A DNA stretch of 64,000 nt from an uncultured delta proteobacterium (GTDB taxonomy: Bacteria; Desulfobacterota; Desulfobulbia; Desulfobulbales; Desulfocapsaceae): assembly GCA_963796255.1 (NCBI GenBank), contig CAWCLE010000010.1, positions 125,765 through 189,764 on the forward strand, given 5' to 3'. The translations under genes and the position numbers were made by a program. This document shows positions 7,440-47,604 of this stretch, piece by piece. Numbering within the stretch: the stretch's first letter is position 1; each line of letters begins with the position of its first letter. The notes under the pieces are model-generated. The model was given only the letters and a program-made list of their open reading frames with translations, did no database searches and was not told where the DNA came from.

Positions 7440-7543
7440 TCGAGCGACTGCCCGAAGTGACAAGAATACAACAGTAACCGCGACGCGTACAAGGGGTCGC
7501 CTGAAGCGCCCCCTTGGTCGTCCATTCTATAGGAACTACCGCC

Positions 7544-9049: not shown

Positions 9050-9094
9050 ATCACCCATTTCTTCACAAACATCCAAACCTGGGAGACTTCGATT

Positions 9095-17332: not shown

Positions 17333-18751
17333 ATGACACCGGAATTCGCCATCCTGGGCCACCCCAATGAAGGTAAATCTTCCGTCCTCTCCACCCTGGC
17401 TGAAGACGATTCGGTACGGGTCAGCTCGACTCCGGGCGAGACCATTGAATGCCGCACCTTCCCGGTGGTGATTGATGGCCGGGAAGTGCTCCGCTTCACC
17501 GACACCCCCGGCTTTCAAAATCCGGCCAGGGTTCTCAGTGAACTGAAAAAACGGACTCTCACCGACGAGAATCCGCTCACCACATTCAGGGCCTATGCCG
17601 CAACCATCCCGGAACTGCACGATGACTGCGAGCTGCTGGGCCCGGTGGAAAGAGGCGCAGGAATCATCTATGTGGTCGATGGTTCACGACCGGTCCGCAA
17701 TGTCGATCGAGCGGAGATGGAGATCCTGCGCCTAACCGGAAAGCCCCGGATGGCAATCATCAACTGCAAAGAAGACGGGGACAACTATCTCGAAGCCTGG
17801 AAAACCGAGTTCCGCAAGAACTTTAATTCCAACCGGGTGTTCAATGCCCACCGGGCCACTTATGCCGAACGGATTCTTCTTCTTACGGCCCTTGAATCAA
17901 TTGACCAGGACTGGCACGAGGCATTGTCCGAGGTGGTTGCTGCTTTCAAAAAAGACTGGGTGGCTCGTAACAGCGCCACGGCCGATACTATCCTGGGACT
18001 ATTGACCGACAGCCTGTCTCTGCAGTTGTCCGACAATATCGGTGCCGAAAAAGAGGCGGAGGAAGCTCGACGAAAACTGTTTATCTCCTACAGCGAGTCC
18101 ATCAGTCGGATGGAGCAGAAAGCCCATCAGCGCATCCGCAATCTTTATAAGCACAATATTTTCAATTATGACCTGCCGCCGCATTCGATCCTTAACAAAG
18201 ACCTGTTCGATGAGCAGACCTGGCAGCTCCTGGGTCTTACCCGGCAGCAGGTCATCATTGCCGGAGGACTTGGCGGAGCGGCCATCGGCGCCGGTCTGGA
18301 AATGGCCGCTTTCGGCCATGGCCTTGGCCTGTTCACTGCCGTCGGCACCCTGGCCGGGGCACTCGGCGCGATGTTTGGCGGCGAAAATCTTTCCGATAAG
18401 ATAAAGTTTTTGGGCCTGCCGCTAGGCGGCAAAAAAGTGCAGATCGGTCCGGCCAAATCCATCGATCTGCTTTTTATTCTGCTCAATCGTTCCCTGCTCT
18501 ATTATCAGCATACCATCAACTGGGCGCACGGCCGCAGGAACTCTAAAAAAGATCAGCCGTCGGAGATGCCACAGCCATACAATAAGTCACCCCAGGGGTT
18601 TACCCAGAACTGGTCGGCTGGAAATATCAAAATTTGTCATGATTTTTTCAAGGCAATCCGCAACGAGAAAGTTGCGCAAGGCCAAAAAACGGTCGAAAAA
18701 TTCCGCGAGCTTCTTCTGAAAACAATGCAGCAGATATCCGAGAGTGAGTAG
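17333..18751 (+). CDS. GTPase with a DUF3482-like membrane-associated C-terminus
   Basis: The preferred ATG is at 17333, after AGGAAA. Motifs are G1 GHPNEGKSS, G3 DTPGF and a G4-like INCKED, followed by a Gly-rich hydrophobic segment (IIAGGLGGAAIGAGLEMAAFG). Confidence 0.7.
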   Translation: MTPEFAILGHPNEGKSSVLSTLAEDDSVRVSSTPGETIECRTFPVVIDGREVLRFTDTPGFQNPARVLSELKKRTLTDENPLTTFRAYAATIPELHDDCELLGPVERGAGIIYVVDGSRPVRNVDRAEMEILRLTGKPRMAIINCKEDGDNYLEAWKTEFRKNFNSNRVFNAHRATYAERILLLTALESIDQDWHEALSEVVAAFKKDWVARNSATADTILGLLTDSLSLQLSDNIGAEKEAEEARRKLFISYSESISRMEQKAHQRIRNLYKHNIFNYDLPPHSILNKDLFDEQTWQLLGLTRQQVIIAGGLGGAAIGAGLEMAAFGHGLGLFTAVGTLAGALGAMFGGENLSDKIKFLGLPLGGKKVQIGPAKSIDLLFILLNRSLLYYQHTINWAHGRRNSKKDQPSEMPQPYNKSPQGFTQNWSAGNIKICHDFFKAIRNEKVAQGQKTVEKFRELLLKTMQQISESE

Positions 18752-18863
18752 AAGAAGAGTGCGCTGGTTTTTTGGGTCTGCTCCTAGTCAGGCTCCGGTT
18801 CCTGCATTAGTGTGTCACCAGCAGAGATTTCGGTTAAATAAAAAAAATGCCCATGGAGGAACA

Positions 18864-19499
18864 ATGGCCCCGGTGATAAAAGGTATCTTCCCGCAAAGCA
18901 CGAAAACCGACCACGAAGCCAAAAAAGATGAGAAGCAGGTTCCCAGCTATGTTTTGCATATTTCCATAACTTTTTCCGACCCGCTCATCTGGCGACGCGT
19001 CCAGGTACCGGGGACATTTACCCTGGCGCAACTCCACGACACCATCCAACAGAGTATGGGCTGGAGCGATTCCCATGTCCATCAGTTTCTGGTCGGCAAG
19101 ATCAGCTATGAACCAGCCATGAAAACCAAGTCCCCCCGAGAAACAAAGCGATTCGACGAATACAAATATAAGCTGTACACCCTGGAGGAAGGAATGCGGT
19201 TCATGTTTTCCTACCTCTATGGCGCCGGGGAAGGATGGGAGCATGAAATTCATCTGGAGGAGATTGTCCCGCCGACCAGACAGCTCAGCCACCCGATCCT
19301 GCTCGCCGGTGTAATGGCCTGTCCGCCGGAGACAATTGGCGACATTCATCAATACCAGAAGTTTTTATCCGATCTCGAATCGTCGGACAAAAAGATAGAT
19401 GAGAATCTGCTGGAGCTTACCGGCCGCCCCGATTTTGATCCGAATTATTTTGATCTGGAAGCGGCCAGGAAAAGAGTGGCGGCATGCGCTGCAAAGTGA
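18864..19499 (+). CDS. pRiA4b ORF-3-like family protein
   Basis: The preferred ATG is at 18864, after GGAGGA. The hallmark sequence is YVLHISITFSDPLIWRRVQVPGTFTLAQLHDTIQQSMGWSDSHVHQF. Confidence 0.7.
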   Translation: MAPVIKGIFPQSTKTDHEAKKDEKQVPSYVLHISITFSDPLIWRRVQVPGTFTLAQLHDTIQQSMGWSDSHVHQFLVGKISYEPAMKTKSPRETKRFDEYKYKLYTLEEGMRFMFSYLYGAGEGWEHEIHLEEIVPPTRQLSHPILLAGVMACPPETIGDIHQYQKFLSDLESSDKKIDENLLELTGRPDFDPNYFDLEAARKRVAACAAK

Positions 19500-19526
19500 C
19501 AATCCGGCGATGGCCGGCGGCAACGC

Positions 19527-20912
19527 TCACTTGCCGCTTTCACCCTCCGTTTCTCTCCCCGCCAGGCGGTATAATTTGATCTTGCGCCAGAGAGTTGTCC
19601 GGGGAATCCCAAGAATCTGGGCAGTCACGCCCCTATTGTAGCCTGTCCGCCTGAGCACTTTCATAATATATCTCTGTTCCATTTCGGCAAGCGAAGGAAA
19701 ACCGTCGCCCGCCAGGGTATCGAATTCCAGATGCTGCAGATCCTTGGGCAGATCCTGCGGGCCGATCTCCTCTCTTTCAGTCAGGGCCAGGGCCCGTTCA
19801 ATGATGTTTTCCAGCTCGCGAACATTACCCGGAAAGCTATACTGCAGCAGGATATTGAGTGCCGGCTCCTGAATTCTGGTGACCTGTTTATGAAAGGCCA
19901 GGCTGTATTTCTTGATAAAATGGCGGGTCAGCAGCGGGATATCCTCGCGCCTGGCTGACAGGGACGGGACGGCAATGGACACCACGTTCAGACGAAAAAA
20001 CAAATCTTCGCGAAAGGTGCCTGCCTCCACCTCATGCTTGAGTTCTTTGTTGGTCGCGGTGATAATCCGGATATCGAGATCGATCGATCGGGTACCACCG
20101 ACGCGGAAAATCTGCCGCTCCTGGATGACATGAAGGAGTTTTACCTGCAGGTTGAGCGGCATTTCCCCGATTTCATCGAGAAATACAGTGCCACCGGCGG
20201 CCGATTCGAGCAGTCCTATCTTGGTCGTCACGGCACCGGTGAAAGCCCCTTTTTCATGGCCGAAGAGTTCACTGTTGATAAGCTCATCGGTGAACCCGCC
20301 GCAGTTGAAGGTGACAAAGGGGTGGTTTTTTTTGGGGCTGAGCTGGTGGATCGCCTTGGCCACCAGTGCTTTTCCGGTGCCGCTTGCGCCCTGGATAAGC
20401 ACGTTGCAGTCAACCGGCGCCACCTTGCGAATCAGGGTGAACAGCTCCTGGATTAGCGGGCTGTTGCCGATAATCGAGGCGAGGCCGGAATCCCCCTTCA
20501 GTGCCTCTCTGAGGCGCAGATTTTCCAGCCGCATGGAAATTTTATCCCTGGCGCTCTGGGCCAGCAGACGAATCTCCGCGAGATTGACCGGCTTGGCGAC
20601 ATAGTGATAGGCTCCGTTACGCATGGCCTCGACGGCGGTTTCGACGCTTTTATGCCCGGTGATGATGATCACCTCGGTTTCCGGATGCAGCCCCTTTACC
20701 CTGGACAGTATTTCCAGGCCGTCGAGATCAGGCAGGCGCATGTCTAAAAAGACGATATCAAAGGCTTGCTGCACCATTCGTTCAAGAAAAGAACGGCCCA
20801 TAATGAAGGCCTCGACGGCATAGTCCTCGCGGGACAGGACTTGACTCAGCCGACGGCAGACAATTTCTTCATCATCGACAATCGCAAGGCGTAATTTCAT
20901 CCGATACTCCAT
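19527..20912 (-). CDS. NtrC-family sigma-54-dependent response regulator (REC-AAA+-HTH), cassette A
   Basis: REC domain (LAIVDDEEIV...DIVFLDMRLPDLDG), Walker A GASGTGKA, the GAFTGA loop and an HTH (GVTAQILGIPRTTLWRKIK). Confidence 0.9.
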   Translation of the reverse strand: MEYRMKLRLAIVDDEEIVCRRLSQVLSREDYAVEAFIMGRSFLERMVQQAFDIVFLDMRLPDLDGLEILSRVKGLHPETEVIIITGHKSVETAVEAMRNGAYHYVAKPVNLAEIRLLAQSARDKISMRLENLRLREALKGDSGLASIIGNSPLIQELFTLIRKVAPVDCNVLIQGASGTGKALVAKAIHQLSPKKNHPFVTFNCGGFTDELINSELFGHEKGAFTGAVTTKIGLLESAAGGTVFLDEIGEMPLNLQVKLLHVIQERQIFRVGGTRSIDLDIRIITATNKELKHEVEAGTFREDLFFRLNVVSIAVPSLSARREDIPLLTRHFIKKYSLAFHKQVTRIQEPALNILLQYSFPGNVRELENIIERALALTEREEIGPQDLPKDLQHLEFDTLAGDGFPSLAEMEQRYIMKVLRRTGYNRGVTAQILGIPRTTLWRKIKLYRLAGRETEGESGK

Positions 20913-22420
20913 CCGGCAAAATCATTGATAATCGCCGGCAACAGGACAGAGATCTTCGTTCCCCGGTCAGGCGCGCTGACCACCTCGATTCGGCCGCCAT
21001 GGCGCTTGACTATGGCAAAACTGACCGCCAGACCAAGCCCCGTTCCTTTGCCGACTTCCTTGGTTGAAAAAAACGGTTCGAAGATCTTTTCCTGAATGTC
21101 CGGCGGGATGCCGGCACCATTATCTTCCACGGTAAATTTAATAAAGCCGGCAATATTGGCCAAGCCCGCGTGGATGCCGATTTTTCCGCCGGCAGGTGTC
21201 GCCTGTATCGCATTGACCAGCAAATTGGTCAGGACCTGTTGCAGGTTGCCCAGATTGCCTTTTATCTCCGGCAGATTGTCTGTGCAGGTCGTTTCCAGCT
21301 GCAAGTCGGCCATCTTGAACTGGTTTTTAATGAGATTGACGGTGCTGGACAGGATAAGCGAAGGGGCAAGGTGGGAGAATTTCGGATTTTCCGTGCGGGA
21401 GAAATCGAGGAGATTCTTGACGATGTCCGCAGCGCGTTCCGCCTGGCTTTGAATATCCCCAAGCATTTCCGCGCAATTCTCATCGATGTCCTTACCGTAC
21501 TCTTCACTTAAGGCTTCTGCGGTGAGGGCAATATTATTGATCGGGTTGTTCAACTCATGGGCAATACCGGCAGTAAAAGTGCCTATCGCAGCGATTTTTC
21601 GCGTCTGGATCAGATCTTCCTGGTTTGTTTCCAGTTCTGCAGCCATACGATTGAAGGCCTCGATAAGACAGGAAATCTCCTCGAGGCGGACGCCGTGATA
21701 ATCAATGGGACTGAAATCTCCCCGGCCGACCGAGCGGGTTGTTTCCATCACCACATCAAGAGGGGTGAGCAGGCCTTGAGAGATAATTCGGAAAACCAGC
21801 ACCATCAGACCGAGAAGAATAACCAGCACAAAGAAGGGGATAGTCAGGATTCGGACAATGGTCGCATGGATACGTTTTCGCTTGATCAGGCGAAAATGGT
21901 CGGCGGCATCGGTGAGCGTCTTGCCGAGATTGCGGATTTTTTCCGGCGGGAGACTCTCTCCCACGCTGACGCGATCGATAAACCGGCGATAGTCGACCAG
22001 ATGGCTCTGGAAATTCTGATAGGCCAATCTGCCGTCAAGCAGTGGCAGATCCAGGGCAAGATCGGTAAGTAACACATCAATACGATTGAGATATTCCCTG
22101 CTTTCGGCGAGGCTCTCTTTGTCGGCATAAATCAAATAATTCTTCTCGAACCTGCGTACTTCTAAAATATTGTTCAACAAATCGTCATACCTCTCACTGA
22201 GCTCGAGGCGTGTTTTCAGCGTTGACAGGTTCCAATAAGCTAAAGCGGTCAGGACTCCGATTAAGATAAAGGTCAGGGCAAAAACGACCAGGATCTTGCC
22301 TTTTATTGATCCCAGGTGCAGCCCCTTGCCCTTCAACTGAGACAGTTGCCGAAAATAAAAGGTGGCAGGTTTATCGTTCATCATGCGACTCCGATAGATG
22401 GAATTTCGACAATATTTCAT
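20897..22420 (-). CDS. Sensor histidine kinase (2 TM with extracytoplasmic helical sensor, HAMP, HisKA, HATPase), cassette A
   Basis: H-box AGIAHELNNPINNI, N box LLVNAIQAT, and G boxes DNGAGIP and GTGLGLA. The gene overlaps the downstream RR gene by 16 nt. Confidence 0.85.
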   Translation of the reverse strand: MKYCRNSIYRSRMMNDKPATFYFRQLSQLKGKGLHLGSIKGKILVVFALTFILIGVLTALAYWNLSTLKTRLELSERYDDLLNNILEVRRFEKNYLIYADKESLAESREYLNRIDVLLTDLALDLPLLDGRLAYQNFQSHLVDYRRFIDRVSVGESLPPEKIRNLGKTLTDAADHFRLIKRKRIHATIVRILTIPFFVLVILLGLMVLVFRIISQGLLTPLDVVMETTRSVGRGDFSPIDYHGVRLEEISCLIEAFNRMAAELETNQEDLIQTRKIAAIGTFTAGIAHELNNPINNIALTAEALSEEYGKDIDENCAEMLGDIQSQAERAADIVKNLLDFSRTENPKFSHLAPSLILSSTVNLIKNQFKMADLQLETTCTDNLPEIKGNLGNLQQVLTNLLVNAIQATPAGGKIGIHAGLANIAGFIKFTVEDNGAGIPPDIQEKIFEPFFSTKEVGKGTGLGLAVSFAIVKRHGGRIEVVSAPDRGTKISVLLPAIINDFAGWSIG

Positions 22421-22470
22421 ATTGAAACATTTTTTATCGATTATAACCAGTTATGTTTCAATATGAAATA
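22413..22470. promoter_or_regulatory. Candidate activator-binding UAS: a perfect 18-bp inverted repeat with a 22-bp spacer
   Basis: TATTTCATATTGAAACAT (22413-22430) and ATGTTTCAATATGAAATA (22453-22470). Each arm contains the dyad TTTCA-N3-TGAAA. The UAS ends 73 bp upstream of the sigma-54 -24 element. Confidence 0.55.
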
Positions 22471-22542
22471 GAAAAGAAACAGGATAGCCGCAACAATCAT
22501 CGCATATTATTGGAATAATAGATTTTATCATTTCAAGCAACC

Positions 22543-22558
22543 TGGCATTCGATTTGCT
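22543..22558 (+). promoter_or_regulatory. Sigma-54 promoter of cassette A
   Basis: TGGCAT-TCGAT-TTGCT is a near-consensus -24/-12 element. It lies 25 nt upstream of the ATG at 22583, and the AAGGAG Shine-Dalgarno sequence sits between them. Confidence 0.75.
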
Positions 22559-22582
22559 TTAAGAGATAAACGAAGGAGATCA

Positions 22583-23002
22583 ATGGAAAAGATACTTGTA
22601 GCAATCGACAGCAGACGCGGCGCATGGGAGGCACTGTCCCATGCATGTTCCCTGGCCGGGAGAATAGATGCCGTTGTCAACGTCCTTCTGGTTTCTCCAC
22701 CCCACAGCACAAGACCCAGCGCTGAGTCCAGGGAAGTGGAAGAGGCAATCAAGAAAAGACTGCTGCTGCTTATCGAGGCGGCCCAGGCCAGGGGGGTAAA
22801 AATACATTATTTCATCACGGAGGGTGGATATGAACAGGAGGTGATAACTTTTATCAACAAGTACAAGATTTCGCTTTTTATATATGAGGCTGATGCCGGC
22901 AAGATTCGCCCCGGCGGGAAGGATCAGGCTTATTCCAGCTCTCTTCCTCACCGGATTTCATGTACGGTGGAAAGAGTTTTTACCAAGAAAAAAACAGCGT
23001 AA
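22583..23002 (+). CDS. Universal-stress-protein-like small alpha/beta protein
   Basis: 139 aa, with KILVAIDSRRGAWEALSHA at the N-terminus. I saw no clear G-2x-G-9x-G(S/T) ATP motif. Confidence 0.6.
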   Translation: MEKILVAIDSRRGAWEALSHACSLAGRIDAVVNVLLVSPPHSTRPSAESREVEEAIKKRLLLLIEAAQARGVKIHYFITEGGYEQEVITFINKYKISLFIYEADAGKIRPGGKDQAYSSSLPHRISCTVERVFTKKKTA

Positions 23003-23018
23003 ACAACGAGAGGATTCC

Positions 23019-23957
23019 ATGAGTTTTTCAATGAATTTGTATCTTCCCATTGCCGGCAACAGTATCAATTGCGTGGCGATACTGGGCCTCGGTGGAGTTG
23101 TCGGTCTGTTATCCGGCATCTTCGGCGTCGGTGGGGGTTTTCTAATGACCCCTCTACTTATCATGATGGGTATTCCCCCGACGGTGGCGGCCGCTTCCGA
23201 TTCCAATCAAATTGTCGGGGCGTCGACGTCCGGGACGCTGGCCCACTTTCGGATGGGCAATGTCGACATTAAAATGGGTCTGCTTTTACTGGTCGGCGGG
23301 ATAGCCGGCGGCACGGTCGGCGTGCAGATTATCAAAATTCTCCGCCAGCTCGGCAATGCCGATTTCCTGATCAGCGTCACCTACGTCCTTATGCTCGGCT
23401 TTGTCGGGGGATATATGTTTCTTGAAAGCCTGCAGGCCATGCGCAAGGCAAAGCAACCGTCCCCAATCGAGACCGCTCCCCGGAAAGAATCTGCTTACGC
23501 AAAAATGATGCGCAGCCTTCCCTTCCAGATGGATTTCCAGCGTTCCGGCATTCGCATGTCGCTGGTCATGCCTTTGGTGCTCGGCACCATGGTCGGTGTG
23601 CTTGCAGCCATCATGGGGGTTGGCGGCGGCTTCGTCATGGTCCCGGTGATGGTCTATCTGTTGCGTATGCCGATGCATGTGGTGGTTGGAACCAGCCTCT
23701 TTCAGATCCTCTTCACCTGTATCAATGTGACGATAATGCAGGCCTCCCAGAATCATACCGTGGATTTCATTCTTGCCCTGCTGCTGCTGATCGGTTCCGC
23801 CCTCGGGGCCCAGGTCGGGGCAAAGGTCGGCAAGAAACTCGGCGGCGAACAATTGAAAATCGCCCTTGCTTCCCTGGTTCTGGTGGTAATGTTTAAGATG
23901 CTCTATGACCTGCTGGCCAGACCGGATATCTTGCTCAGCTATATGGGAGGACATTGA
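23019..23957 (+). CDS. TauE/SafE (TSUP) family anion permease
   Basis: The preferred ATG is at 23019 (MSFSMNLYLPIAG). The protein has about 8 TM helices and a duplicated motif (GIFGVGGGFLMTPLL and IMGVGGGFVMVPVM). Confidence 0.8.
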   Translation: MSFSMNLYLPIAGNSINCVAILGLGGVVGLLSGIFGVGGGFLMTPLLIMMGIPPTVAAASDSNQIVGASTSGTLAHFRMGNVDIKMGLLLLVGGIAGGTVGVQIIKILRQLGNADFLISVTYVLMLGFVGGYMFLESLQAMRKAKQPSPIETAPRKESAYAKMMRSLPFQMDFQRSGIRMSLVMPLVLGTMVGVLAAIMGVGGGFVMVPVMVYLLRMPMHVVVGTSLFQILFTCINVTIMQASQNHTVDFILALLLLIGSALGAQVGAKVGKKLGGEQLKIALASLVLVVMFKMLYDLLARPDILLSYMGGH

Positions 23958-23958
23958 G

Positions 23959-24723
23959 ATGACATTTCTGCGCTATCTGCCCATGCCGGCCCTGCTGCTT
24001 CTCGTTCTTCTGCCCGGCCCGGCTCATGCAGCCGCTCCTCTATCTATGACCGTCGCCCCGGCAAACATCCATATGGGCGCCCGTTTTGACGGCACCACCC
24101 TGACAGTATCCGGAACGGTCCCTGCCGGCAGCGACGTCATCTTACGTTTCACCGGTGCACCGGAAGATCTCCATCTCCGCCAAAAGGGCAAGGTCTTTGG
24201 CCTGTTATGGATGAATACCGGCACGGTGCACCTGAAAAACGTGCCCAAAATCTGCCTTCTTGACTCGTCACGTCCTCTCACCGAACTGGGCGCTGCCGGG
24301 ACTTCCCTGGAGCTTGCCGGCCTCAAGTCCGATATTGCCGTGGAAAAAGGCGGCAACGCTGAAGAGAGCGAGGTGATCCATGAACTGCTGCTGCTGAAGA
24401 AACACGATCACCTGTACAGCGAAAGGACCAACAGCGTCGTTCTTGGTCCGGATACCGCAGACGGTCGCACCTTTACCGCCGGGATACGCATTCCTTCCGC
24501 GGTCGCTCCGGCCCACTACACCCTGGAACTTTTTGCCGTGCACGACGGGGCAATAAGCAGTCGACAGACAACCGATGTAACCGCGGAACTGACCGGCTTT
24601 CCCAGGTGGCTCAGCACACTGGCCTTTTCCAACGGCCTGCTCTATGGCATACTGGCGACTATCATCGCCGTTGTCAGCGGGCTGGCGATCGGCCTGGTAT
24701 TTCAAAGCAAGGGGGCACATTGA
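23959..24723 (+). CDS. TIGR02186-like (Alph_Pro_TM) exported protein with a C-terminal TM anchor
   Basis: The ATG at 23959 sits immediately after the TauE stop codon. It has a signal peptide ending PAHA. Motifs are KGKVFGLLWMN, LLLLKKHDHLYSE, APAHYTLELFAVHDG and a C-terminal TM helix (LLYGILATIIAVVSGLAIGLVF). This family is commonly paired with TauE-type genes, from memory. Confidence 0.6.
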   Translation: MTFLRYLPMPALLLLVLLPGPAHAAAPLSMTVAPANIHMGARFDGTTLTVSGTVPAGSDVILRFTGAPEDLHLRQKGKVFGLLWMNTGTVHLKNVPKICLLDSSRPLTELGAAGTSLELAGLKSDIAVEKGGNAEESEVIHELLLLKKHDHLYSERTNSVVLGPDTADGRTFTAGIRIPSAVAPAHYTLELFAVHDGAISSRQTTDVTAELTGFPRWLSTLAFSNGLLYGILATIIAVVSGLAIGLVFQSKGAH

Positions 24724-24737
24724 AAACGTGAACTCTT

Positions 24738-27308
24738 ATGTCTGCTCTCAATAAGGTCATCCAGAAACTGCTCGCTTACCCACGGCGCCGTAAACAGGTA
24801 TTGCCGTTTACGGTGCTTTTTAAAAAGTTCCAGTCCATCCTGGAAAGCAACAACCAGGTCCTTGAGCTGATGGCTGATATGGGCGATAAACTGGGAGGAG
24901 AGTATGTTTTTGACCGGCGGTATATTGAGGATGCGGCAGAAAAGGTCGGCGACCATGTTTTTAAGCTGATTTCCGGCCTCAGCATCCTCACCCAGCGCAA
25001 GAATGTCGAACTTTTTGTGGCTTTTGAGCGTATCCGGCAGGCAATCCAAGGCGAGTTGTCGGGCAACCATTATCTGCCAACCGGCAATCTGGTCCTGCCG
25101 CTTGGGGAACTAAATTCGGAAATGAGTGAGCAGGCGGGCGATAAAATGGCCAAGCTCGGTGATATCAGCAATCGCCTGGGACTCACAACATCTGAAGGTT
25201 TCGTGATAACCACCCAGGCTTTTTTTGAGTTCATGAAGAAAACAGGCCTGCTGGAAAAAGCCACCCAGGCACCACAGTTCCATCAAAAAGGCGACGATGC
25301 AGCCTTTCAACAGCTTGCCGAGACCATGCAGCAAAGTATTCTCGACACGCCGGTGCCGCGGCACCTGAAGGCCCAGATTTCTGCCCAGTTCGATGCTCTT
25401 GCCGAACGGATGCAGCGCCCGCAGTTGACCATGGCCGTTCGAAGCAGCGGCTGGGGCGAAGGAGAAGACACCAGTTTTGCCGGGCAGTACACCACCCTGT
25501 TGAACGTGTCGCCCGATCAGCTTATCGACTGCTACCGGCGGGTCGTCGCCGGTGCCTATTCGTTCAAGGCGTGGAGTTATCGCCTGCACAAGGGCTATCT
25601 GGAGCATGAGACAGCCATGGCCGTCGGTTGCCAGGTGATGGTCGACAGCCGGGTCAGTGGTGTCCTCCACACCTATGCCCCGGATGCGGCTGATGGGGCC
25701 ATGCTGGTCAACGGCATGTGGGGCCTCTGCGCCCCGGTAGTCGAAGGCAGTAGACGAACCGACACGATAATTCTCGATCGGCGCCCGCCTTACGCCGTCC
25801 TCACCGAGACCGTGGCGGCAAAACCGCAGCGGCTGGTCCTTGCCCGGGCTGGCGGCACGGTGTGGGAAGATACCCCGTCTGCGCTGCGCGACATACCCTG
25901 CCTGACCGGCAGCCAGCTAGAGGAACTCGCCCGGACCTCCATGCGCATCGAGCGCTACTATAAGAGACCCCAGGAGATTGAGTGGACGTTTGACGCTCAC
26001 GGCCGCTTACTCATCCTCCAGGCGCGGCCGCTGCGTTTTCGGGAAACGCCGTCCATTCCCAAGGCCCAACTGCTCGAGGCCACCCGCGATGCGGAGATCA
26101 TTCTCTCCGATCGGGGTTTAGTCGCCCAGCGTGGCATCGGCATCGGCAAAATCTTTCGTGTGGACAATGATACCGACCTGAAAAACTTCCCTTACGGCGC
26201 AATTATGCTGGCCAAATATACCTCCCCACGTTATTCGTCGATCATGCACAAGGCGCGGGGAATCATTACCGATGTTGGTTCCCCCACCGGCCATATGGCA
26301 TCCCTGGCCCGGGAATTCAGAGTGCCGACGATTGTCGATACGGAGGTGGCGACGTCTCTTTTGCACACCGGTGATGAAATCACCCTCGATGCCACCCAAA
26401 ACATTGTCTATCGCGGCAGTATCATCGCTCTGGCTCGTTTTGATTTGATTGAAGACGAGGTCTTTGAAGATTTTTATGAATATCGTCTGCTGCGCCGGCT
26501 GCTTAAATTTATCAGCCCTCTACACCTCCTGGATCCGCAAGGTGATAACTTTACCCCGGCCGCCTGTCGCACCTATCATGATATCGCCCGGTATATTCAT
26601 GAAAAAGCGGTTGAAGAGCTTATTAACCTGAGCGAAAAAAAAGAGGCGCAGTTTCTCTCCGCCCCGAAGCGACTGGTGGCCGACCTGCCGCTCGGGCTAA
26701 TGGTTATCGATGCGGGTGCGGGCACCAGTTGCGCACCGGATGCCCGGGTGGTCATGCCGGAGCAGATACTCTCTGTGCCCCTCCGTGATTTTTTAAACGG
26801 CCTCGATGAATCGGGCATGTGGGTGACCACTCCTGTTCCCGTCAATCTAGGCAGTTTCATGGCGAGCCTCACCCGTACTTCCATGGCCGGGCCAAAGGAC
26901 CTCGGCCGCAACCTCGCAGTCGTCCTGGAAAATTATATGAATATAAATATGCGGCTTGGCTATCATTTTACGGTAATAGATGCCTATATTTCAGATACAA
27001 TCAACGACAATTCCATCTATTTCAGGTTTCTCGGCGGGGTAACTGAATTTATCCGCCGCTCACGACGGGCGAAATTTATCGCTCAGGTCCTGGCCCATTT
27101 CGATTTCAGGGTTGAGGTACACGGCGATCTGGTGATCGGCCGGGTGAAAAAAATGTCCCGGCCGCGTATGTCCGAACGTATGCGTATCCTCGGCGGACTT
27201 GTCGGTTACACCCGGCAGCTCGACGCCCAGATGCACTCGGACAAAGATGTAACTCTGCACGCGCAACAGTTCATCGATGCCGTGCATAATGTGATGGGAG
27301 AAAAATAA
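24738..27308 (+). CDS. PEP-synthase-like phosphotransferase P1 (N-helical domain, intact PPDK_N ATP-grasp, phosphohistidine swivel, unassigned C-terminal domain; no TIM barrel)
   Basis: 856 aa. Motifs are AGDKMAKLGDI...EGFVITT, AVRSSGWGEGEDTSFAGQYTTLLNV, PQEIEWTF...LILQARPL, the swivel His in GSPTGHMASLAREFRVPTIV, and the C-terminal MRLGYHFTVIDAY...IYFRFLGG. Confidence 0.8.
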   Translation: MSALNKVIQKLLAYPRRRKQVLPFTVLFKKFQSILESNNQVLELMADMGDKLGGEYVFDRRYIEDAAEKVGDHVFKLISGLSILTQRKNVELFVAFERIRQAIQGELSGNHYLPTGNLVLPLGELNSEMSEQAGDKMAKLGDISNRLGLTTSEGFVITTQAFFEFMKKTGLLEKATQAPQFHQKGDDAAFQQLAETMQQSILDTPVPRHLKAQISAQFDALAERMQRPQLTMAVRSSGWGEGEDTSFAGQYTTLLNVSPDQLIDCYRRVVAGAYSFKAWSYRLHKGYLEHETAMAVGCQVMVDSRVSGVLHTYAPDAADGAMLVNGMWGLCAPVVEGSRRTDTIILDRRPPYAVLTETVAAKPQRLVLARAGGTVWEDTPSALRDIPCLTGSQLEELARTSMRIERYYKRPQEIEWTFDAHGRLLILQARPLRFRETPSIPKAQLLEATRDAEIILSDRGLVAQRGIGIGKIFRVDNDTDLKNFPYGAIMLAKYTSPRYSSIMHKARGIITDVGSPTGHMASLAREFRVPTIVDTEVATSLLHTGDEITLDATQNIVYRGSIIALARFDLIEDEVFEDFYEYRLLRRLLKFISPLHLLDPQGDNFTPAACRTYHDIARYIHEKAVEELINLSEKKEAQFLSAPKRLVADLPLGLMVIDAGAGTSCAPDARVVMPEQILSVPLRDFLNGLDESGMWVTTPVPVNLGSFMASLTRTSMAGPKDLGRNLAVVLENYMNINMRLGYHFTVIDAYISDTINDNSIYFRFLGGVTEFIRRSRRAKFIAQVLAHFDFRVEVHGDLVIGRVKKMSRPRMSERMRILGGLVGYTRQLDAQMHSDKDVTLHAQQFIDAVHNVMGEK

Positions 27309-27712
27309 TGCAACAGGACGACAACCAGAAATCATCGCGACTGCGCATCCTTATCTTAGATGATGAGCCTATCGTCTGTAAACGGTTGAAACCGGCTTTC
27401 GAAAAAAGAGGTTATGCCGTCGAAACCTATACGGAAAGCGCTTCAGCCCTTGCCCGCTTAGAAGAAATGGCGTTTGATATCGTCATCACCGACCTGAAAA
27501 TGGAAGGGGTCGACGGGATGCAGATCCTGACCCAGGCCAAAAAAACCGGCGAAAATACCCGCGTTATTATCATTACCGGCTTCGCTACTTTAGAAACGGC
27601 ACGGGAATCCTATCGCCTGGGGGCTTTTGATTTTGTCGCCAAACCATTTAAATTACGGGATATATTGGACTGTGTCAAAAAGGTCGAAGAGCAATTGCGG
27701 GCCGGACAATAA
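27308..27712 (+). CDS. Single-domain response regulator (CheY-like REC)
   Basis: 134 aa, with ILILDDEPIV...DIVITDLKMEGVDG...VIIITG...AKPF. Its ATG overlaps the P1 stop codon (TAATG). Confidence 0.85.
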   Translation: MQQDDNQKSSRLRILILDDEPIVCKRLKPAFEKRGYAVETYTESASALARLEEMAFDIVITDLKMEGVDGMQILTQAKKTGENTRVIIITGFATLETARESYRLGAFDFVAKPFKLRDILDCVKKVEEQLRAGQ

Positions 27713-27766
27713 CAGTCAATCAAGGTCATAAGAAGATTTTCCATATCATCCGGCGGAGACATAAAA

Positions 27767-30367
27767 ATGTGGTGGCAGAAGCTATTTGGCAGACGGCGTC
27801 CGGCAACAAAGGACACGGCTGAAATAAATATCTGGCGCCTCCAGTCTCTGTTTAATAATTTCAAGAGAATCCTCCAGTTAAACAACGCCGTCCTGGCCGA
27901 TATGGCCCGGATGGAACAGGCTCTCGGCGGCGAGTATATCTACGACCGGGCCTTTCTGGAAACGACGGTCCGGACGATTGCCTCCCATGTTCACCATGTG
28001 ACGTACAACCTCAACGCCTTGACCGGCAATGCCTATATATCCCTGTATGACCGGTATCAGGATATCCATACCATCCTCGACGACATCCTCTCCGGCAATA
28101 CCCGCGCCCTCGCCTGTCCACCGGTGCTCCCGTTGGCCGATATCGGCTGGGAAATGGAGCCGCTGGTCGGTATCGACCTGGTCTGCCTGGCCGAGCTGCA
28201 GCACCACCCGGGCATCCATGGTCCAGCCGGCTTTGTCATTACTTCTGAAGGAACCCGGGCACTGACCGGTCGGCTCAGTCATGACGGTTCAGAAACGGTC
28301 CAGATATCCGGCGAAAGGGTACGGACGGGTCTTGCCGAACAGCTGGAAATTCTGCTGCCGAACTGCGCTATCGGAAGGTTAACCGTCGTTGTTACCCAGA
28401 TCGACGATAATGAGGAAATAGCCAGGGAGCTTGGCAGGTTCACGGTCATGCCGACCGCGGACCGGTCGGTTTTGAGCATTATCGGAGATACAAGGCATCC
28501 CGCAGAACCTGATACCGGCAAGAATATCACCGATCTGCCGATTGAGGAAGATGAAACCGTCACTGCGGCGCCAAGTCGAGATCAGGGAAAATCCATCCAC
28601 CTCTATGTCCGTTGTCTGGAGCGTATTATCCATACTATCTTTGTCCGTATGCAGAAAGCAGGAGCAGACAGAGTCGTACAGTATGCGGTATTCGTCCGGT
28701 GCTGCCCCAATGTCGCAACCACCGGGCTGGTCCAGAGCCGCACAGCGACCACCAATTCTCATGACGTGCTGTCGATCACTGCGAATCATACCGAAGAGGA
28801 ATACGATACCTACCTCCTCAATCGCACCTATCCTTTCGATCTGATCCAGTCAGAGATTTCCGCCCATCCCGGTGCCGGGAATCTTTCCGTCGGCGGTCAT
28901 AGCCGCAGGTCGGCAATCCTCACCAATAAGCAACAAAAAGCATTGGCCGAAACCGCCATGACCCTGGAACGGATGCTGGGCATCCCTCTTGTCCTCACCT
29001 GGGAAATGCTCCCTGAAGCGAAGTGCAATATCACGCGCCTTATTCCCCTGCAGCAGACACCCCGGGAAATTTCCGTCGAAGAACAGCTCAATGAACAGGA
29101 CAATGCGAAAATTCTTTACCGGGGCGGCCAGTTGGTCCAGTCGGGTGTCGCAGCCGGCCACGTCGTGCATGTTACCGATACTATGGCTGCGACGGATTTT
29201 CCGGCAGGAGCCGTGGCGGTGGCCAGAACCGCATCGCCACAGTTGACCCCGATCCTCCAGCGCGCTGCGGCAATACTGACCGAATACGGCAGCCCCGCCG
29301 GCCATCTGGCCACGGTGGCCAGAGAACTGCGCCTGCCGGCCGTCTTTGCCATACCGGAGGTGTTGACCCTGCTGCCGCCGGGTACGGAAGTGACGGTCAA
29401 CGCAGGAGAAACGACGATCTATCAGGGTATTCTGCATACCATGCTGCAGCATGGCGGCGCGGACATGGAACTCACCCCGAACGATCCGGAATACCGGACC
29501 TTGCGGCGACTGTTACGGTTTATCATGCCTCTCCATCTGATTGATCCGGAGGCCGCCGATTTTACTCCCGAAGGCTGCCGCAGTTTTCATGATATCATTC
29601 ATTTCTGTCACGAACGGGCGGTTGAAGAACTGGCCCATTTCCAGGAGCGTCGACCGGGCCTTGGCTCAATCCGCACCAAACGAATGCGCCTCAAGGTGCC
29701 GATGGATATCCGCGTTCTCGATACCGGTGGAGGAATGATCAAAGATGCCGCAGAGGAACCGACCGGCGCCGATATCCTATCCGAACCCTTCGCAATATTC
29801 CTGGACGGACTGCTCCAACCCGAAGCCTGGACTGCCGAGACACCCTCTCTCGGCCTGCGCGACATCATCTCCGGCATGCCGCACAGCACGAACATTCTGG
29901 CCGTCCCAGCCGAGCAACTGGGGAAAAACCTGGCGATAATAAGCAGCGATTATATGAACATCAGCCTGCGCCTGGGCTATCATTTCAGCGTCATCGATGC
30001 CCATCTGGGCAGTGATGAACAGCGTAATTATGTCTATTTTCGCTTTGCCGGCGGCCTCGCCGACCCCGAGCGAAGAAAACGTAGAGCCACATTTATCAAA
30101 GATGTCCTTGAGGCAATGGCCTTCAAGGTATCGGTCAACGGCGACCTGGTCATAGGCCGGCTGAAACTGGTGGAAACAGAGCTGTTGCACTCAGCGATCT
30201 TTATTCTTGGCGCACTGACCGCTTTTTCCCGGCAACGCGATACCGGGCTCTATACCGATGCCGACACAAAGGTGCTGTTCAATACCTTTGCCGCCGCTTT
30301 TCTCAACCGTTTTGACTGGGACCTCAGCAGTACTTGCTCGCGCAGCCAAGGCCCTGCAGAGATCTGA
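27767..30367 (+). CDS. PEP-synthase-like protein P2 with a degenerate ATP-grasp and a retained swivel His and C-terminal domain
   Basis: 866 aa. The N-terminal region closely resembles P4. PLVGIDLVCLAEL replaces the GGKAANL motif. The VRSS...SFAGQ motif is absent. The swivel motif is YGSPAGHLATVARELRLPAVF. The C-terminal motif is LRLGYHFSVIDAH...YVYFRFAGG. Confidence 0.75.
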   Translation: MWWQKLFGRRRPATKDTAEINIWRLQSLFNNFKRILQLNNAVLADMARMEQALGGEYIYDRAFLETTVRTIASHVHHVTYNLNALTGNAYISLYDRYQDIHTILDDILSGNTRALACPPVLPLADIGWEMEPLVGIDLVCLAELQHHPGIHGPAGFVITSEGTRALTGRLSHDGSETVQISGERVRTGLAEQLEILLPNCAIGRLTVVVTQIDDNEEIARELGRFTVMPTADRSVLSIIGDTRHPAEPDTGKNITDLPIEEDETVTAAPSRDQGKSIHLYVRCLERIIHTIFVRMQKAGADRVVQYAVFVRCCPNVATTGLVQSRTATTNSHDVLSITANHTEEEYDTYLLNRTYPFDLIQSEISAHPGAGNLSVGGHSRRSAILTNKQQKALAETAMTLERMLGIPLVLTWEMLPEAKCNITRLIPLQQTPREISVEEQLNEQDNAKILYRGGQLVQSGVAAGHVVHVTDTMAATDFPAGAVAVARTASPQLTPILQRAAAILTEYGSPAGHLATVARELRLPAVFAIPEVLTLLPPGTEVTVNAGETTIYQGILHTMLQHGGADMELTPNDPEYRTLRRLLRFIMPLHLIDPEAADFTPEGCRSFHDIIHFCHERAVEELAHFQERRPGLGSIRTKRMRLKVPMDIRVLDTGGGMIKDAAEEPTGADILSEPFAIFLDGLLQPEAWTAETPSLGLRDIISGMPHSTNILAVPAEQLGKNLAIISSDYMNISLRLGYHFSVIDAHLGSDEQRNYVYFRFAGGLADPERRKRRATFIKDVLEAMAFKVSVNGDLVIGRLKLVETELLHSAIFILGALTAFSRQRDTGLYTDADTKVLFNTFAAAFLNRFDWDLSSTCSRSQGPAEI

Positions 30368-30475
30368 GTCAATCCTGGCCTGGACCTCACTGCATGGCAC
30401 TAGTATAATCATGACCTATCCAATATAGAGCCGCCAATCCATCGATAAATCTCTTACCAATCGTGCAATTGTAAA

Positions 30476-30742
30476 ATGGTTATGATCAGATCAGCAAATA
30501 ACAACGAGGCAGATGTATTAACAAAAATATCTTTTGCGTCAAAAGGCTATTGGAACTACCCAGAGAAATATTTCGAGGTATGGAAGAATGAAACAGTAAC
30601 CGTTCACCAGCACTTCATTTTCGTCCGATCAGGCCCCCTTCACATAGCCAACTATAGCTCGCAGGCCTGCTTGAACGAAACTGGAGCACTGGTTGAACGT
30701 TTACAGATCCGGGTTCTTTGGTCACTTACTGCGGTCCGGTGA
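30476..30742 (+). pseudogene. GNAT acetyltransferase remnant, N-terminal fragment only
   Basis: The first ~40 codons (IRSANNNEADVLTKISFASKGYWNYPEKYFEVWKNE) resemble GNAT N-termini. The similarity then stops, and no acetyl-CoA binding motif follows. Confidence 0.4.
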
Positions 30743-31125
30743 ACTATTACGACAAACACATAAAGTGATGAAGGACCTTCAAATTAAAGGGTTTGGGCCA
30801 TAACCAGCAATAGCATCAAAACAGCGAACAAGCCGTTTTACCGGAAAAATCCCTCCACCATCCGTCACACCACCTCGCATGCGGGTCTACCCCAAGGGCA
30901 CTTCCGATGGCCGTGCGCCAGGCGGTTCTCAAATGCCTCAAACTCGAACAATTTATCGCCGATACATGGATTGTCCAATAACTTTTCGAGAACCTTGATT
31001 CAAAGGTTGCACGATATGGGCGGCCGTCTCCATGTCTTAACATAACGATCTTGATTTTATCTTGAAATATTCAAACGTGTGTTTTATATACATGTTTAAA
31101 TCATACGTTTTTTTTGGGAGGCGCC

Positions 31126-31791
31126 ATGTCCGAGCAAACAATCCCAACCAAGCAACGAATTCTTCATGCGGCCGGCATCATATTTGGCAAAAACGGCTAT
31201 AAAGATGCCACTATCCGCATGATCGCCCAGGCGGCGCGGGTAAATATTGCCGCCATCAATTATCATTTTCAGGGTAAAGAAGGCTTGTATGGGGCTGTTC
31301 TTGAAGATGTTTTTCACAACGGTTTCCACCGTTTCCCAGCCACCCTGGAAGTCGGCGCTGATGCCGACCCAAAGCAGCGGCTCCGGGCGTTTATCAGGGC
31401 AATGTTCTATCGCCTGCAGAGCCGGGAGGGCTGGGGCGGCATGGCCGGCCAGGGGCGGCTGATCGCCAGGGAACTTATAGATCCGAGCCCCGCTTTTACC
31501 TTGATTCTCGATAAATATGTGCAACCGCATAAAGACCTGCTGCTCACCATCATTGGCGATATCATGCGGATTCATCCCGGTCCGGACAAACTTAAGGCCT
31601 GCGCCGTATCCATTATCGGCCAGTGCATCTACTACGCCCTGGCGTCAACGGTTATCCGCAGAGTCTTTGCCGATACCTCGCCCGCAGACGACGATCTCGA
31701 GCTCCCGGCAGATTCCGTCTGGCTCTTTTCTCTTGGTGGCATTGCCCGGATCAAAGAGGAATACCTTTTATCATCAAAGGCTGAATCATGA
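31126..31791 (+). CDS. TetR/AcrR-family repressor (CecR/YbiH-like position)
   Basis: The preferred ATG is at 31126, after GGGAGG. The HTH is TKQRILHAAGIIFGKNGYKDATIRMIAQAARVNIAAINYHFQGKEGLY. The gene overlaps the next gene by 4 nt. Confidence 0.85.
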   Translation: MSEQTIPTKQRILHAAGIIFGKNGYKDATIRMIAQAARVNIAAINYHFQGKEGLYGAVLEDVFHNGFHRFPATLEVGADADPKQRLRAFIRAMFYRLQSREGWGGMAGQGRLIARELIDPSPAFTLILDKYVQPHKDLLLTIIGDIMRIHPGPDKLKACAVSIIGQCIYYALASTVIRRVFADTSPADDDLELPADSVWLFSLGGIARIKEEYLLSSKAES

Positions 31792-42190: not shown

Positions 42191-44242
42191 ATGTTATTTA
42201 GGAAAAAAACCAGCCCCGACGCTCCCCCTCCCGAGCAGGCAGAAAAAGAAGAGACACCTCTTGACAAGCTGCGTCAAAAGATCGATGCGGCCAATCTCCC
42301 CCAGCATGCCCTTGATGCCGCCAATAAAGAACTGGATAAACTGACCACCACCGATGCGGCGGTCGCCGAATATTCCGTCGGTCTCAATTACATCGAACTG
42401 ATCAGTTCACTGCCCTGGAATATTTCTACCAAGGGAACCCTCGATATGGCCCGGGTCCAGTCCATTCTTGATGGTCGCCACTGCGGGCTAGGCCAGGTAA
42501 AACAGCGCATTCTTGAATTTCTGGCAGCAAAAACCCTGCGCGGCAGTGCCAGACAGAACATCCTTATCGTCGATGATGAAGATATTGCCAGGACGAATAT
42601 GGCCCACGTCCTGAGCAAAGACGGCTATGGCTGCAAAACCGCCGAAAATGGGATAGTTGCGTTGAAGGTACTGGCGGAAGAGGATATTGATCTGATCATC
42701 AGCGATCTGAAAATGGACCATATGGATGGTCTGGAACTGCTGCATGAGGTCAATCACAGCTATCCGGAAATTCCGGTCATCGTGGTGACCGGCTTTGCCA
42801 CGATCAATTCGGCGGTGCAAGCGATGAAAAGCGGTGCCGCGCATTATCTCGGCAAACCTGTCAATCTGGATGAATTGCGCAAAACCGTTCGCGAGGTTCT
42901 AGACCAGAAACTTACCAGTGAAATGGGTAAAGGCCCGATTCTCTGCTTCACCGGCCCTCCGGGTACCGGCAAGACCTCGGTGGGCAGGGCAATCGCCGAG
43001 GCCCTACAGCTCCAGTTTATCAGGGTATCCCTGGCGGGGCTGCGCGATGAGGCGGAACTCCGCGGTCACCGACGGACCTATGTAGGTGCCATGCCCGGAC
43101 GGGTGATCATGGAACTCAAAAGAGCGGCGGTGAACAACCCGGTCTTTATGCTCGATGAGATCGATAAGATCGGCCAGGATTTTCGCGGCGACCCGGCGTC
43201 GGTCATGCTTGAAGTCCTCGATCCCGAGCAGAACGTTAAATTTATGGATTCCTATCTGGATATTCCTTTTAACCTGTCGCGGATCATGTTTATCGCCACC
43301 GCCAATGATGTATCGCTGTTACCCGGACCGCTACTTGACAGGATGGAACTCATTGAGTTTACTGGCTATACCGAAAAGGAAAAATGTCAAATTGCCCGGG
43401 ATTTCATTCTCCCCCGACAGCTCAAAGCGGCCGGCTTGAACACCCTCGGCATTGTGTTTTCCGACGCAGCCCTGTCACGGATTATTGGTGATTACACCAG
43501 AGAATCGGGCTTGCGCAACCTGGAAAGAGAAATTGCCAATGTCTGCCGGAAACTGGCGCTTATCTATCTCGACTCGAAAAAAACCGTGCTCGACACCAAA
43601 GTTGAAGCGAGCACCATTACCACGCTTCTTGGTCCGCGAAGGTTTATCAGAAATATTGCCCAAAGCGAACCAAAGGTGGGGATAACCACCGGCCTGGTCT
43701 GGTCGACCATCGGCGGCGAGATCATCAGCGTTGAAACAGCGTCCATGGAAGGCTCCGGTAACCTGTTACTTACCGGTTCTTTGGGCGAGGTATTGCAGGA
43801 ATCGGCTCAAGCGGCTTTAAGTCTTATCAGGAGCAGATCGGCTGAGTTCGGCATAAAAGAATATTTTTTTAAGGACATGGATATTCACATCCATTTTCCG
43901 GCCGGTGGCATTGCCAAAGACGGTCCTTCCGCTGGAATCACCATCTTTGCCGCGCTGCTTTCCCTGCTGACCAACCGACCCGCACGAAGAGATATCGCCA
44001 TGACCGGAGAAATGACGCTGAGCGGACGAATCCTGCCTATCGGTGGTATCAGGGAAAAACTGCTGGCGGCGCAGCGGGCAGGTATAAAGACGGTTCTTTT
44101 ACCCCTGGCCAATAAAGAAGAGGTGGAGATACTGCCACCCGATGTGCTGGAAAATCTCGAGATAGTGCTGGTGGAAAATGCCGACGAGGTGATTCCCCGG
44201 GTATTGCTCGGAGCAGAGCAGGCGGCAAGAAAAAAAGAATGA
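42191..44242 (+). CDS. LonA-type protease lacking the N-terminal substrate domain, with a REC receiver inserted before the AAA+ module
   Basis: 683 aa. A Lon helical segment ([12 protein letters not shown]...[18 protein letters not shown]) is followed by a REC domain ([10 protein letters not shown]...[14 protein letters not shown]...VIVVTG...GKPV). Next come [30 protein letters not shown] and DEIDK. The protease catalytic Ser (KDGPSAG) and Lys ([10 protein letters not shown]) motifs are present. Confidence 0.85.
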
Positions 44243-47588: not shown

Positions 47589-47604
47589 TGGCATAGAGGT
47601 TGCT
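47589..47604 (+). promoter_or_regulatory. Sigma-54 promoter of cassette B
   Basis: TGGCAT-AGAGG-TTGCT is near consensus. It is followed by a leader of about 165 nt before the ATG at 47770. Confidence 0.7.

Follow-up and report, generated by a model that had tools for sequence, protein, structure and literature searches.

In the phosphotransferase system (PTS), the swivel histidine of enzyme I, a phosphoenolpyruvate (PEP) utiliser, donates its phosphoryl group to a histidine of another protein (HPr). Phenylphosphate synthase of Thauera aromatica is of the two-component dikinase type. In HpeHI, a further two-component dikinase, the ATP-grasp domain on one polypeptide charges the swivel histidine on another, and HpeH alone carries out phosphotransfer between substrates without an ATP-grasp partner (PMC12167813). 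The DNA analyzed here is a stretch of 64,000 nt from an uncultured delta proteobacterium of the Desulfocapsaceae (assembly GCA_963796255.1, contig CAWCLE010000010.1, positions 125,765 to 189,764 of the forward strand), which is called the window below. It encodes five paralogous dikinase-like proteins, P1 to P5, and a CheY-like receiver (REC) between P1 and P2. Two of the paralogues, P2 and P4, are members of a clade of swivel-histidine proteins that resemble PEP synthase; the clade is old and conserved, and its nucleotide site is dead.

A related gene group is the "nitrate cluster" of Desulfovibrio vulgaris and D. alaskensis (DVU0245-DVU0251 and Dde_0597-0605), which encodes a TauE-like permease, a small hypothetical membrane protein, a PtxB-like protein, a histidine kinase, a single-domain receiver, a PPDK-like protein with an ATP-grasp and a mobile domain, and a phosphatase. 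Disruption of this cluster leads to nitrate resistance; a leaky thiosulfate transporter was hypothesised, and the mechanism was left open (Korte et al. 2014, PMC4001038).

The dead nucleotide site of P2 and P4

The paralogues and the receiver are located in the window as follows.

24738-27308, plus strand: P1, intact dikinase-like protein of 856 aa with an N-terminal helical domain, an ATP-grasp, swivel histidine H519 and a family-specific C-terminal domain
27308-27712, plus strand: REC, stand-alone CheY-like receiver of 134 aa (PF00072, E 3.5e-28)
27767-30367, plus strand: P2, degenerate paralogue of 866 aa; swivel histidine H513, the C-terminal domain and the ATP-grasp fold are kept, K/R/Q/E/E/Q/R are lost
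about 27992-27997 and about 28148-28198: new invariant residues 76-77 and 128-144 of P2
49547-52009, plus strand: P3, intact, stand-alone paralogue of 820 aa
58683-61376, plus strand: P4, degenerate paralogue of 897 aa from the same clade as P2; swivel histidine and C-terminal domain are kept
61373-64000, plus strand: P5, intact partner of P4; the gene extends past the end of the window

A previous interpretation made from the letters of the window (the sequence-only reading) had given no coordinates for P3; its other gene calls and junctions matched the recomputed open reading frames (ORFs). The REC start overlaps the P1 stop as TAATG, the P5 start overlaps the P4 stop as ATGA, and a gap of 54 nt lies between REC and P2. 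The swivel phosphohistidine domain PF00391 was found in all five paralogues (E 1e-12 to 2e-19). P1, P3 and P5 also contain PF01326 (PPDK_N; E 1e-64 to 3e-71), whereas P2 and P4 matched PF00391 alone, and the NCBIfam PpsA models align to these two proteins only from about model position 280 on.

The catalytic positions were taken over from PpsA (structure 2ols, aligned with P1) and were read in a five-way alignment of the paralogues. P1, P3 and P5 carry K (GxK), R (VRSS), Q (SFAGQ), D/E-x-E, Q-x-R and the histidine. In P2 and P4 none of the seven nucleotide/Mg residues is left and the swivel histidine is present; K is replaced by D, R by G, V or S, E-x-E by V-x-T or I-x-H, and Q-x-R by R-x-I/F. 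The equivalents of PPDK K22, R92, D321/E323, Q335 and R337 are therefore present in P1, P3 and P5 and absent from P2 and P4. Both the Pfam matches and the residue mapping bear out the proposal that P1, P3 and P5 are intact and that P2 and P4 lack the ATP site, with the swivel histidine and the C-terminal domain retained; the alignment to structure-characterised PpsA (2ols) left no complete nucleotide site in P2 or P4. The hallmark motif of P2 is WEMEPLVGIDLVCLAEL. P2 and P4 had been described as nearly identical over their first ~170 aa; the identity is 67.5% (residues 20-170), although this is their best-conserved part when compared with residues 171-440 (28%).

To place P2 and P4 among their relatives, 52 genomic loci were fetched with a profile of the P2-type N-terminus, their ORFs were scored against the window proteins, and the catalytic residues were scored in the five window proteins and in 112 locus homologues of near-full length. 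All seven nucleotide/Mg residues were lost and the histidine was kept in 45 of 45 near-full-length homologues of the degenerate type. About 30 of the 33 P1-type proteins were intact by a strict signature, the remainder deviating at one or two columns, and 36 of 37 P5-type proteins were intact; of 72 intact homologues scored, a single one lacked the swivel histidine. This split between intact and degenerate residues is far beyond chance. A single P5-type homologue among the 37 from related loci shows the reverse of the P2/P4 pattern, with Gln in place of the catalytic swivel histidine and intact ATP-site residues.

In the more distant genomes, the Arg and one acidic residue persist in the protein at the second position, but the Lys never does. 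Everywhere, distant genomes included, the motif E-[ML]-E-P-L-V-G..V-C-L-A-E stands in place of the former GxK loop. Residues W128, E129, E131, G135, C140 and E143 (P2 numbering), all invariant in the degenerate clade, occupy this former ATP-binding loop, and two further invariants of the clade, H76 and H77, belong to the second helix of the N-terminal bundle. The gain of such clade-specific invariants (H76/H77 and residues 128-144) suggests a new interface or ligand site and not simple decay. When the middle regions of the degenerate and intact families were aligned with hhalign, a probability of 99.6% (E 2e-23, 272 columns) was obtained, and the AlphaFold model of P2 (pLDDT 77.7) matched PpsA, PPDK and the ATP domain 5hv6 of RPH (TM 0.55). 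By profile alignment and predicted structure, homology to the ATP-grasp is still recognisable in the middle region of P2.

Homologues of P2 with PF00391 only form more than 110 clusters at 90% identity and come from Desulfobulbales, Halodesulfovibrio, Desulfovibrio subterraneus and Desulfomicrobium. The mean identity within the degenerate clade is 0.71 for the N-terminal domain, 0.36 for the grasp-like domain, 0.65 for the His domain and 0.64 for the C-terminal domain; the grasp domain of the intact clades reaches 0.50-0.56. The His domain and the C-terminal (putative acceptor) domain of P2 and P4 are as conserved as those of the intact paralogues. Against the closest relative, dN/dS was 0.23 for P2, 0.13 for P4, 0.12 for P1 and 0.09 for P5, with 0.36 in the grasp-like region of P2. 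Since the conservation and the dN/dS values show purifying selection, P2 and P4 are taken to be functional proteins with a dead nucleotide site.

None of the five paralogues matched the PEP/pyruvate TIM barrel PF02896, and the NCBIfam PpsA scores (287 and 275 bits) were less than half of the cut-offs (598 and 740); the paralogues are therefore not PEP synthases. The C-terminal domain was recovered in ~1,400 cluster representatives at 50% identity by an exhaustive profile search, almost always at the C-terminus of proteins of 800-900 aa; a PDB sequence search with it gave nothing significant. As 35 of its columns are invariant in all five paralogues, no complementary decay between partners is seen. 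The N-terminal domain was also considered as HPt-like; it has no Pfam match, and its AlphaFold model consists of three helices. Nothing relevant on this paralogue family was found in the literature search, and the swivel-histidine dikinase subfamily with its conserved pseudo-dikinase partner is uncharacterised.

Gene pairing and the proposed heteromer

The genes around P1-REC-P2 (operon A) and the site downstream of P2 are as follows.

19527-20912, minus strand: RR_A, sigma54-dependent response regulator with REC, Sigma54_activat and HTH_8 domains (Pfam)
20897-22420, minus strand: HK_A, histidine kinase with HAMP-HisKA-HATPase_c (Pfam), divergent from operon A
22583-23002, plus strand: Usp, universal stress protein (PF00582), first gene of operon A
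22884-23957, plus strand: TauE_A, TauE/SafE (TSUP) membrane transporter (PF01925, E 6e-49)
23905-24723, plus strand: Alph_Pro_TM putative membrane protein (PF09608, E 4e-41)
30350-31070: deletion scar; relatives carry an intact P5-type partner gene of ~2.75 kb here (blastn synteny with L001, L003 and L004)

An intact P5-type gene lies directly 3' of the degenerate gene in 45 of the 47 loci with enough downstream sequence to be informative. A 46th case of this order (L052) was hidden by a fused ORF, and L033 is the sole clear exception besides the P2 of the window itself. The overlaps between the two genes, under longest-ORF calling, are mostly exactly 4 nt, usually ATGA. The description of P4-P5 as an adjacent, coupled pair thus extends to a widely conserved arrangement, and in these loci homologues of the degenerate type are not usually encoded alone.

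In the usual operon, genes for the sigma54-dependent response regulator and the histidine kinase are read in one direction, and Usp, TauE, Alph_Pro_TM, P1, REC, P2 and a P5-type gene, P5', follow in this order in the other. The closest relative (L001, ~90% nucleotide identity) has P1-REC-P2-P5', and weaker P1 homologues led to two distant genomes, L053 and L054, in which the usual layout is also present. Synteny of the window with the closest relative covers 17795-30349 and ends 18 nt before the P2 stop (blastn); synteny with L004 resumes at 31071. No remnant of P5' was found by tblastn in 30300-31150, which points to its deletion and not to pseudogenisation. A truncated GNAT-like ORF of 88 aa (30476-30742) is all that the scar contains; in L002 and L003 its homologues have ~175 aa. 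Because its last gene, P5', was deleted, the P1-REC-P2 group of the window is an operon remnant. P5, encoded elsewhere in the same genome, could substitute for the lost protein.

The grouping of P1 with P2 as a pair analogous to P4-P5 was not supported, given that P2 has its own P5' in relatives and that the degenerate gene stays with the P5-type gene when the modules separate. All 14 P4-clade genes lack P1 or REC upstream and always have a P5-type gene downstream, and three P2-clade genes without an upstream P1 also have the P5-type gene downstream. In L030 and L035, TauE-Alph_Pro_TM-P1-REC is located on the opposite strand from the degenerate-P5 pair. As the modules separate in these loci and in those of the P4 clade, two modules can be distinguished, namely P1-REC and degenerate-P5-type. 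Pairwise distances of the degenerate proteins correlate with those of their partners (r = 0.92), and the degenerate gene and its partner were duplicated as a unit, giving the P2/P5' and P4/P5 clades.

The receiver residues D18, D19, D62, T90 and K112 were 100% conserved in 35 REC orthologues; with these five signature residues invariant, REC is predicted to be a working phospho-acceptor. Its closest receiver in the window is that of RR_A (45% identity). The first half of alpha1, the helix that carries the main specificity residues between kinases and regulators, is common to REC (DDEPIVCKRL) and RR_A (DDEEIVCRRL) and is not found in the other two receivers of the window; the resemblance holds in 23 loci. 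From this shared alpha1 it would appear that one kinase, the neighbouring HisKA protein, serves the sigma54 regulator as well as REC. A histidine kinase is conserved at the HK_A position in most loci. Moreover, in the P3-type cluster of Pseudodesulfovibrio piezophilus (L056), REC is encoded directly after a canonical histidine kinase and before an intact dikinase-like protein. Judged from these sequences, the data suggest a conventional route from the histidine kinase to REC rather than transfer from a swivel His to Asp.

The account that we prefer, with moderate confidence and on sequence and analogy, is a pseudo-dikinase/dikinase heteromer in which the histidine of the degenerate protein is loaded in trans and REC is served by the canonical kinase. 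The degenerate protein would form an obligate heteromer with the P5-type paralogue, whose gene lies directly 3' of its own and is joined to it by translational coupling. Only one ATP-grasp of the complex, that of the P5-type subunit, would be live; it would charge the swivel histidine of its own subunit and, in trans, that of the degenerate one, and the phosphoryl group would then be delivered to an acceptor bound by the C-terminal domain. The divergently encoded histidine kinase would phosphorylate REC and would also serve the sigma54 regulator driving the operon, and phosphorylated REC would modulate P1. The whole system would be tied to TauE-type anion transporters and related to the Desulfovibrio nitrate cluster.

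Several observations weigh against this account. The ~290-aa C-terminal domain has no Pfam match even at E 10, and no PDB fold was matched significantly when its AlphaFold model (pLDDT 78.8) was searched with Foldseek (best E 0.09). Loss of the gene after P2 is tolerated in the window genome and in L033, so the pairing is not absolutely obligate in cis. Over the His and C-terminal domains, the degenerate clade shares 35-37% identity with the P1-type and 28-29% with its genomic partner, and the N-terminal domain is likewise nearer to the P1-type (28-29%) than to the P5-type partner (20%). P2 probably arose from a P1-like gene, as far as these identities indicate. In the split dikinases of the HpeHI kind the two functions are divided between the polypeptides, whereas both partners here are full-length (897 aa and ~919 aa). 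For the likeness to the D. vulgaris nitrate cluster, the basis is the gene annotations tabulated in PMC4001038 together with the same layout in P. piezophilus, which served as a proxy.

The next best explanation, possible although we consider it unlikely, is an ATP-independent role of the degenerate proteins. They would act without a partner, as phosphotransferases or sensors with the histidine charged from a phosphorylated substrate at their own C-terminal domain, and adjacency to the P5-type gene would reflect a shared pathway, not a complex. The activity of HpeH without its ATP-grasp partner (PMC12167813) is in keeping with such a role, as are the strong conservation of the His and C-terminal domains and the purifying selection on P2, which has no cis partner in the window. 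The new invariants of the former nucleotide loop (W128, E129, E131, C140 and E143), together with H76 and H77, also suggest a ligand or an interface. Against it, the near-universal 4-nt overlap is a coupling typical of stoichiometric complexes, and the gene and its partner were duplicated as one unit.

Because the degenerate clade is closest to the P1-type, a second alternative has to be weighed, in which P1 and P2 are a true heteromeric pair derived from an ancestral homodimer, REC regulates the pair and the P5-type protein acts separately. In 28 loci the degenerate gene is immediately preceded by P1-REC, and the window genome retains P1-REC-P2 despite the loss of P5'. However, the 14 P4-clade and three P2-clade genes without an upstream P1 all have the P5-type gene, the degenerate gene stays with that gene where P1-REC lies on the other strand (L030 and L035), and it is the P5-type gene that is joined by the 4-nt overlap, whereas REC and the 54-nt gap part P1 from P2. 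This arrangement therefore appears rather improbable. We would give a similarly low standing to a broader proposal, in which the dead-site paralogues are dedicated phospho-histidine carriers that are charged by the intact paralogue and pass the phosphoryl group to REC, to TauE or to its membrane partner. Such proteins would form a new phosphorelay class, built from PEP-utilising modules instead of HisKA/HPt and gating anion transport; in sulfate reducers, the transport so gated would be that of thiosulfate, sulfite or nitrate.

A His-to-His(-to-Asp) relay, in which the intact ATP-grasp loads its swivel histidine and the phosphoryl group passes to the histidine of the degenerate paralogue and on to Asp62 of REC, is doubtful. 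Its positive support is adjacency: REC is translationally coupled to P1 with its acceptor residues kept in 35 of 35 orthologues, and a receiver adjoins a dikinase in two paralogous subfamilies (P1 then REC here, REC then the P3-type protein in L056). The histidine kept in 45 of 45 degenerate proteins would suit such a relay, and PTS enzyme I is an established precedent for donation from a swivel histidine to the histidine of another protein. However, a canonical HisKA kinase is encoded beside the operon, the alpha1 specificity helix of REC matches that of the kinase's own sigma54 regulator, REC of L056 is directly 3' of a canonical kinase, and REC moves with P1 and not with the degenerate paralogue when the modules part. 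We know of no precedent for transfer from a swivel histidine to a receiver Asp, and a full-text literature search found no described relay of this kind.

Finally, that P2 and P4 are decaying, functionless gene copies is very hard to maintain: the grasp-like region does evolve fast (36% identity within the clade, dN/dS 0.36 in P2) and the partner of P2 was lost in the window, but the reading frames of 866 and 897 aa are intact, the clade comprises more than 110 clusters at 90% identity and is conserved in Desulfobulbales, in Desulfovibrionales and in further groups, its N-terminal, His and C-terminal domains are 64-71% identical, and an overall dN/dS of 0.13-0.23, with these conservation data, rules out pseudogenes.

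TauE loci, promoter-like sites and neighbouring genes

All three loci of the paralogues are tied to a TauE/TSUP transporter: locus A with P1-REC-P2, locus B with P3 and locus C with P4-P5. Locus A and locus B are each accompanied by a divergent kinase and sigma54 regulator of their own. The remaining features are as follows.

22543-22558, plus strand: sigma54-type -24/-12 promoter-like site TGGCATTCGATTTGCT, upstream of operon A
44244-45605, minus strand: second sigma54 regulator, divergent from the P3 operon (Pfam)
45655-47121, minus strand: histidine kinase, divergent from the P3 operon (Pfam)
47589-47604, plus strand: sigma54-type promoter-like site upstream of TauE_B
47758-48921, plus strand: TauE_B (Pfam)
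48976-49539, plus strand: orf187, small membrane protein in the TauE_B/P3 locus
56264-57598, minus strand: TauE_C, divergent from P4 (Pfam)
57648-57992, minus strand: small membrane ORF of locus C, divergent from P4
58088-58103, minus strand: sigma54-type promoter-like site upstream of the TauE_C operon

The window was scanned for the sigma54 consensus TGGCAC-N5-TTGCW with one mismatch allowed. Only three matches were obtained, each just upstream of one TauE operon and in the right orientation. Three is the number expected by chance; the placement is not. The true start of TauE_A is probably near 23020, since its orthologues have 311-331 aa. The Usp gene is found in the equivalent position in L054. 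By blastp, orf187 showed no similarity to Alph_Pro_TM or to either of two ORFs of locus C (239 aa and 114 aa).

The palindrome TTGCAT-N-ATGCAA occurs three times (58171-58183, 58262-58274 and 58448-58460) in the divergent intergenic region between TauE_C and P4-P5; the whole window contains five matches at two mismatches or fewer. These palindromes may be candidate binding sites of a regulator. Downstream of TauE_C (54486-56233, minus strand), a tandem-domain Usp gene is accompanied by the 239-aa ORF, which has no family match, so that Usp genes accompany loci A and C. A calcineurin-like phosphoesterase (Metallophos) is encoded near the P3 locus (52827-53612, minus strand), and a Metallophos gene directly follows the P5-type gene in two distant genomes (L054, 18164-18838, minus strand; L055, 9323-9997, minus strand). 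Elsewhere in the window, four tandem paralogous DUF1254 + DUF1214 genes (4322-10144) are followed by a Phenol_MetA_deg-type outer-membrane protein (10270-11247), and a Lon-type protease with an N-terminal receiver domain (REC-AAA-Lon_C) is encoded at 42191-44242.

Comparison with known systems

In P1, P3 and P5, as in PpsA and PPDK, an N-terminal ATP-grasp (PPDK_N) contains the K/R/E/Q catalytic set and precedes the swivel His domain PF00391; the best sequence and fold matches were 2ols, 8a8e and 1kbl. Unlike PpsA and PPDK, the window paralogues carry the ~290-aa C-terminal domain in place of the PF02896 barrel and an extra N-terminal three-helix domain of ~115 aa, and P2 and P4 are without a nucleotide site. 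Rifampin phosphotransferase and PigC/RedH resemble the paralogues in that an ATP-grasp and a swivel histidine shuttle a phosphoryl group to a third, substrate-binding domain (NCBIfam and Foldseek matches). Their order, however, is grasp, substrate domain and His, and the C-terminal domain described here is unrelated to theirs by fold search.

HpeI (9goj) was among the fold matches of the P2 model. Unlike in HpeHI, the degenerate partner here keeps the fold of the grasp domain and has lost the active site only, and the domain order is PpsA-like (grasp-His-C) and not RPH-like; the resemblance to HpeHI lies in the proposed mechanism only. A conserved pseudo-dikinase whose gene accompanies that of an active paralogue offers a clean natural system in which to test how pseudoenzymes work among the phosphoryl-swivel enzymes, and the subfamily defined here adds a C-terminal domain without a Pfam family or a solved fold. 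With classical His-Asp phosphorelays, the system shares a standard receiver with the D-D-D-T-K residues. Unlike the PTS and those phosphorelays, P1 to P5 contain no HPr, HPt or HisKA module, and a canonical kinase is encoded next door.

The cluster L056 of P. piezophilus (FO203427.1, 2671-12526) has the order TauE, a 196-aa protein, a small gene on the opposite strand, a PhnD-like protein, a histidine kinase, REC, a dikinase-like protein and a PTP/DSP phosphatase. TauE_B, orf187 and P3 of the window are orthologous to its TauE, 196-aa protein and dikinase (59%, 37% and 48% identity). The P3-type dikinase of L056 stands beside a DSP-type phosphatase. The glucan-water-dikinase/SEX4 pair of plants is a parallel, which hints, by analogy, at a cycle of phosphorylation and dephosphorylation on a common substrate.

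The nitrate cluster is resembled twice in the window, by locus B (TauE_B-orf187-P3 with a divergent kinase and response regulator) and by locus A (TauE_A-Alph_Pro_TM-P1-REC, also with a divergent kinase and response regulator). DVU0246 and DVU0247 were not among the best 120 matches of the P1 or P3 searches. The nitrate cluster encodes a PtxB-like binding protein and a PTP-type phosphatase, neither of which was found in the window, where tblastn with the PhnD-like and PTP proteins of L056 gave no match. It also has one PPDK-like gene and no degenerate paralogue, unlike the window. The nitrate-resistance phenotype of this related cluster matters for the nitrate treatment of oil-field souring. 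With the modules named, namely P1-REC, degenerate plus P5-type, and TauE plus its membrane partner, the mechanism of nitrate resistance becomes experimentally tractable. Taken together, the enzymes of the window are of a known kind; what is new is a conserved pseudo-dikinase partner in sigma54-controlled TauE operons related to a genetically known cluster.

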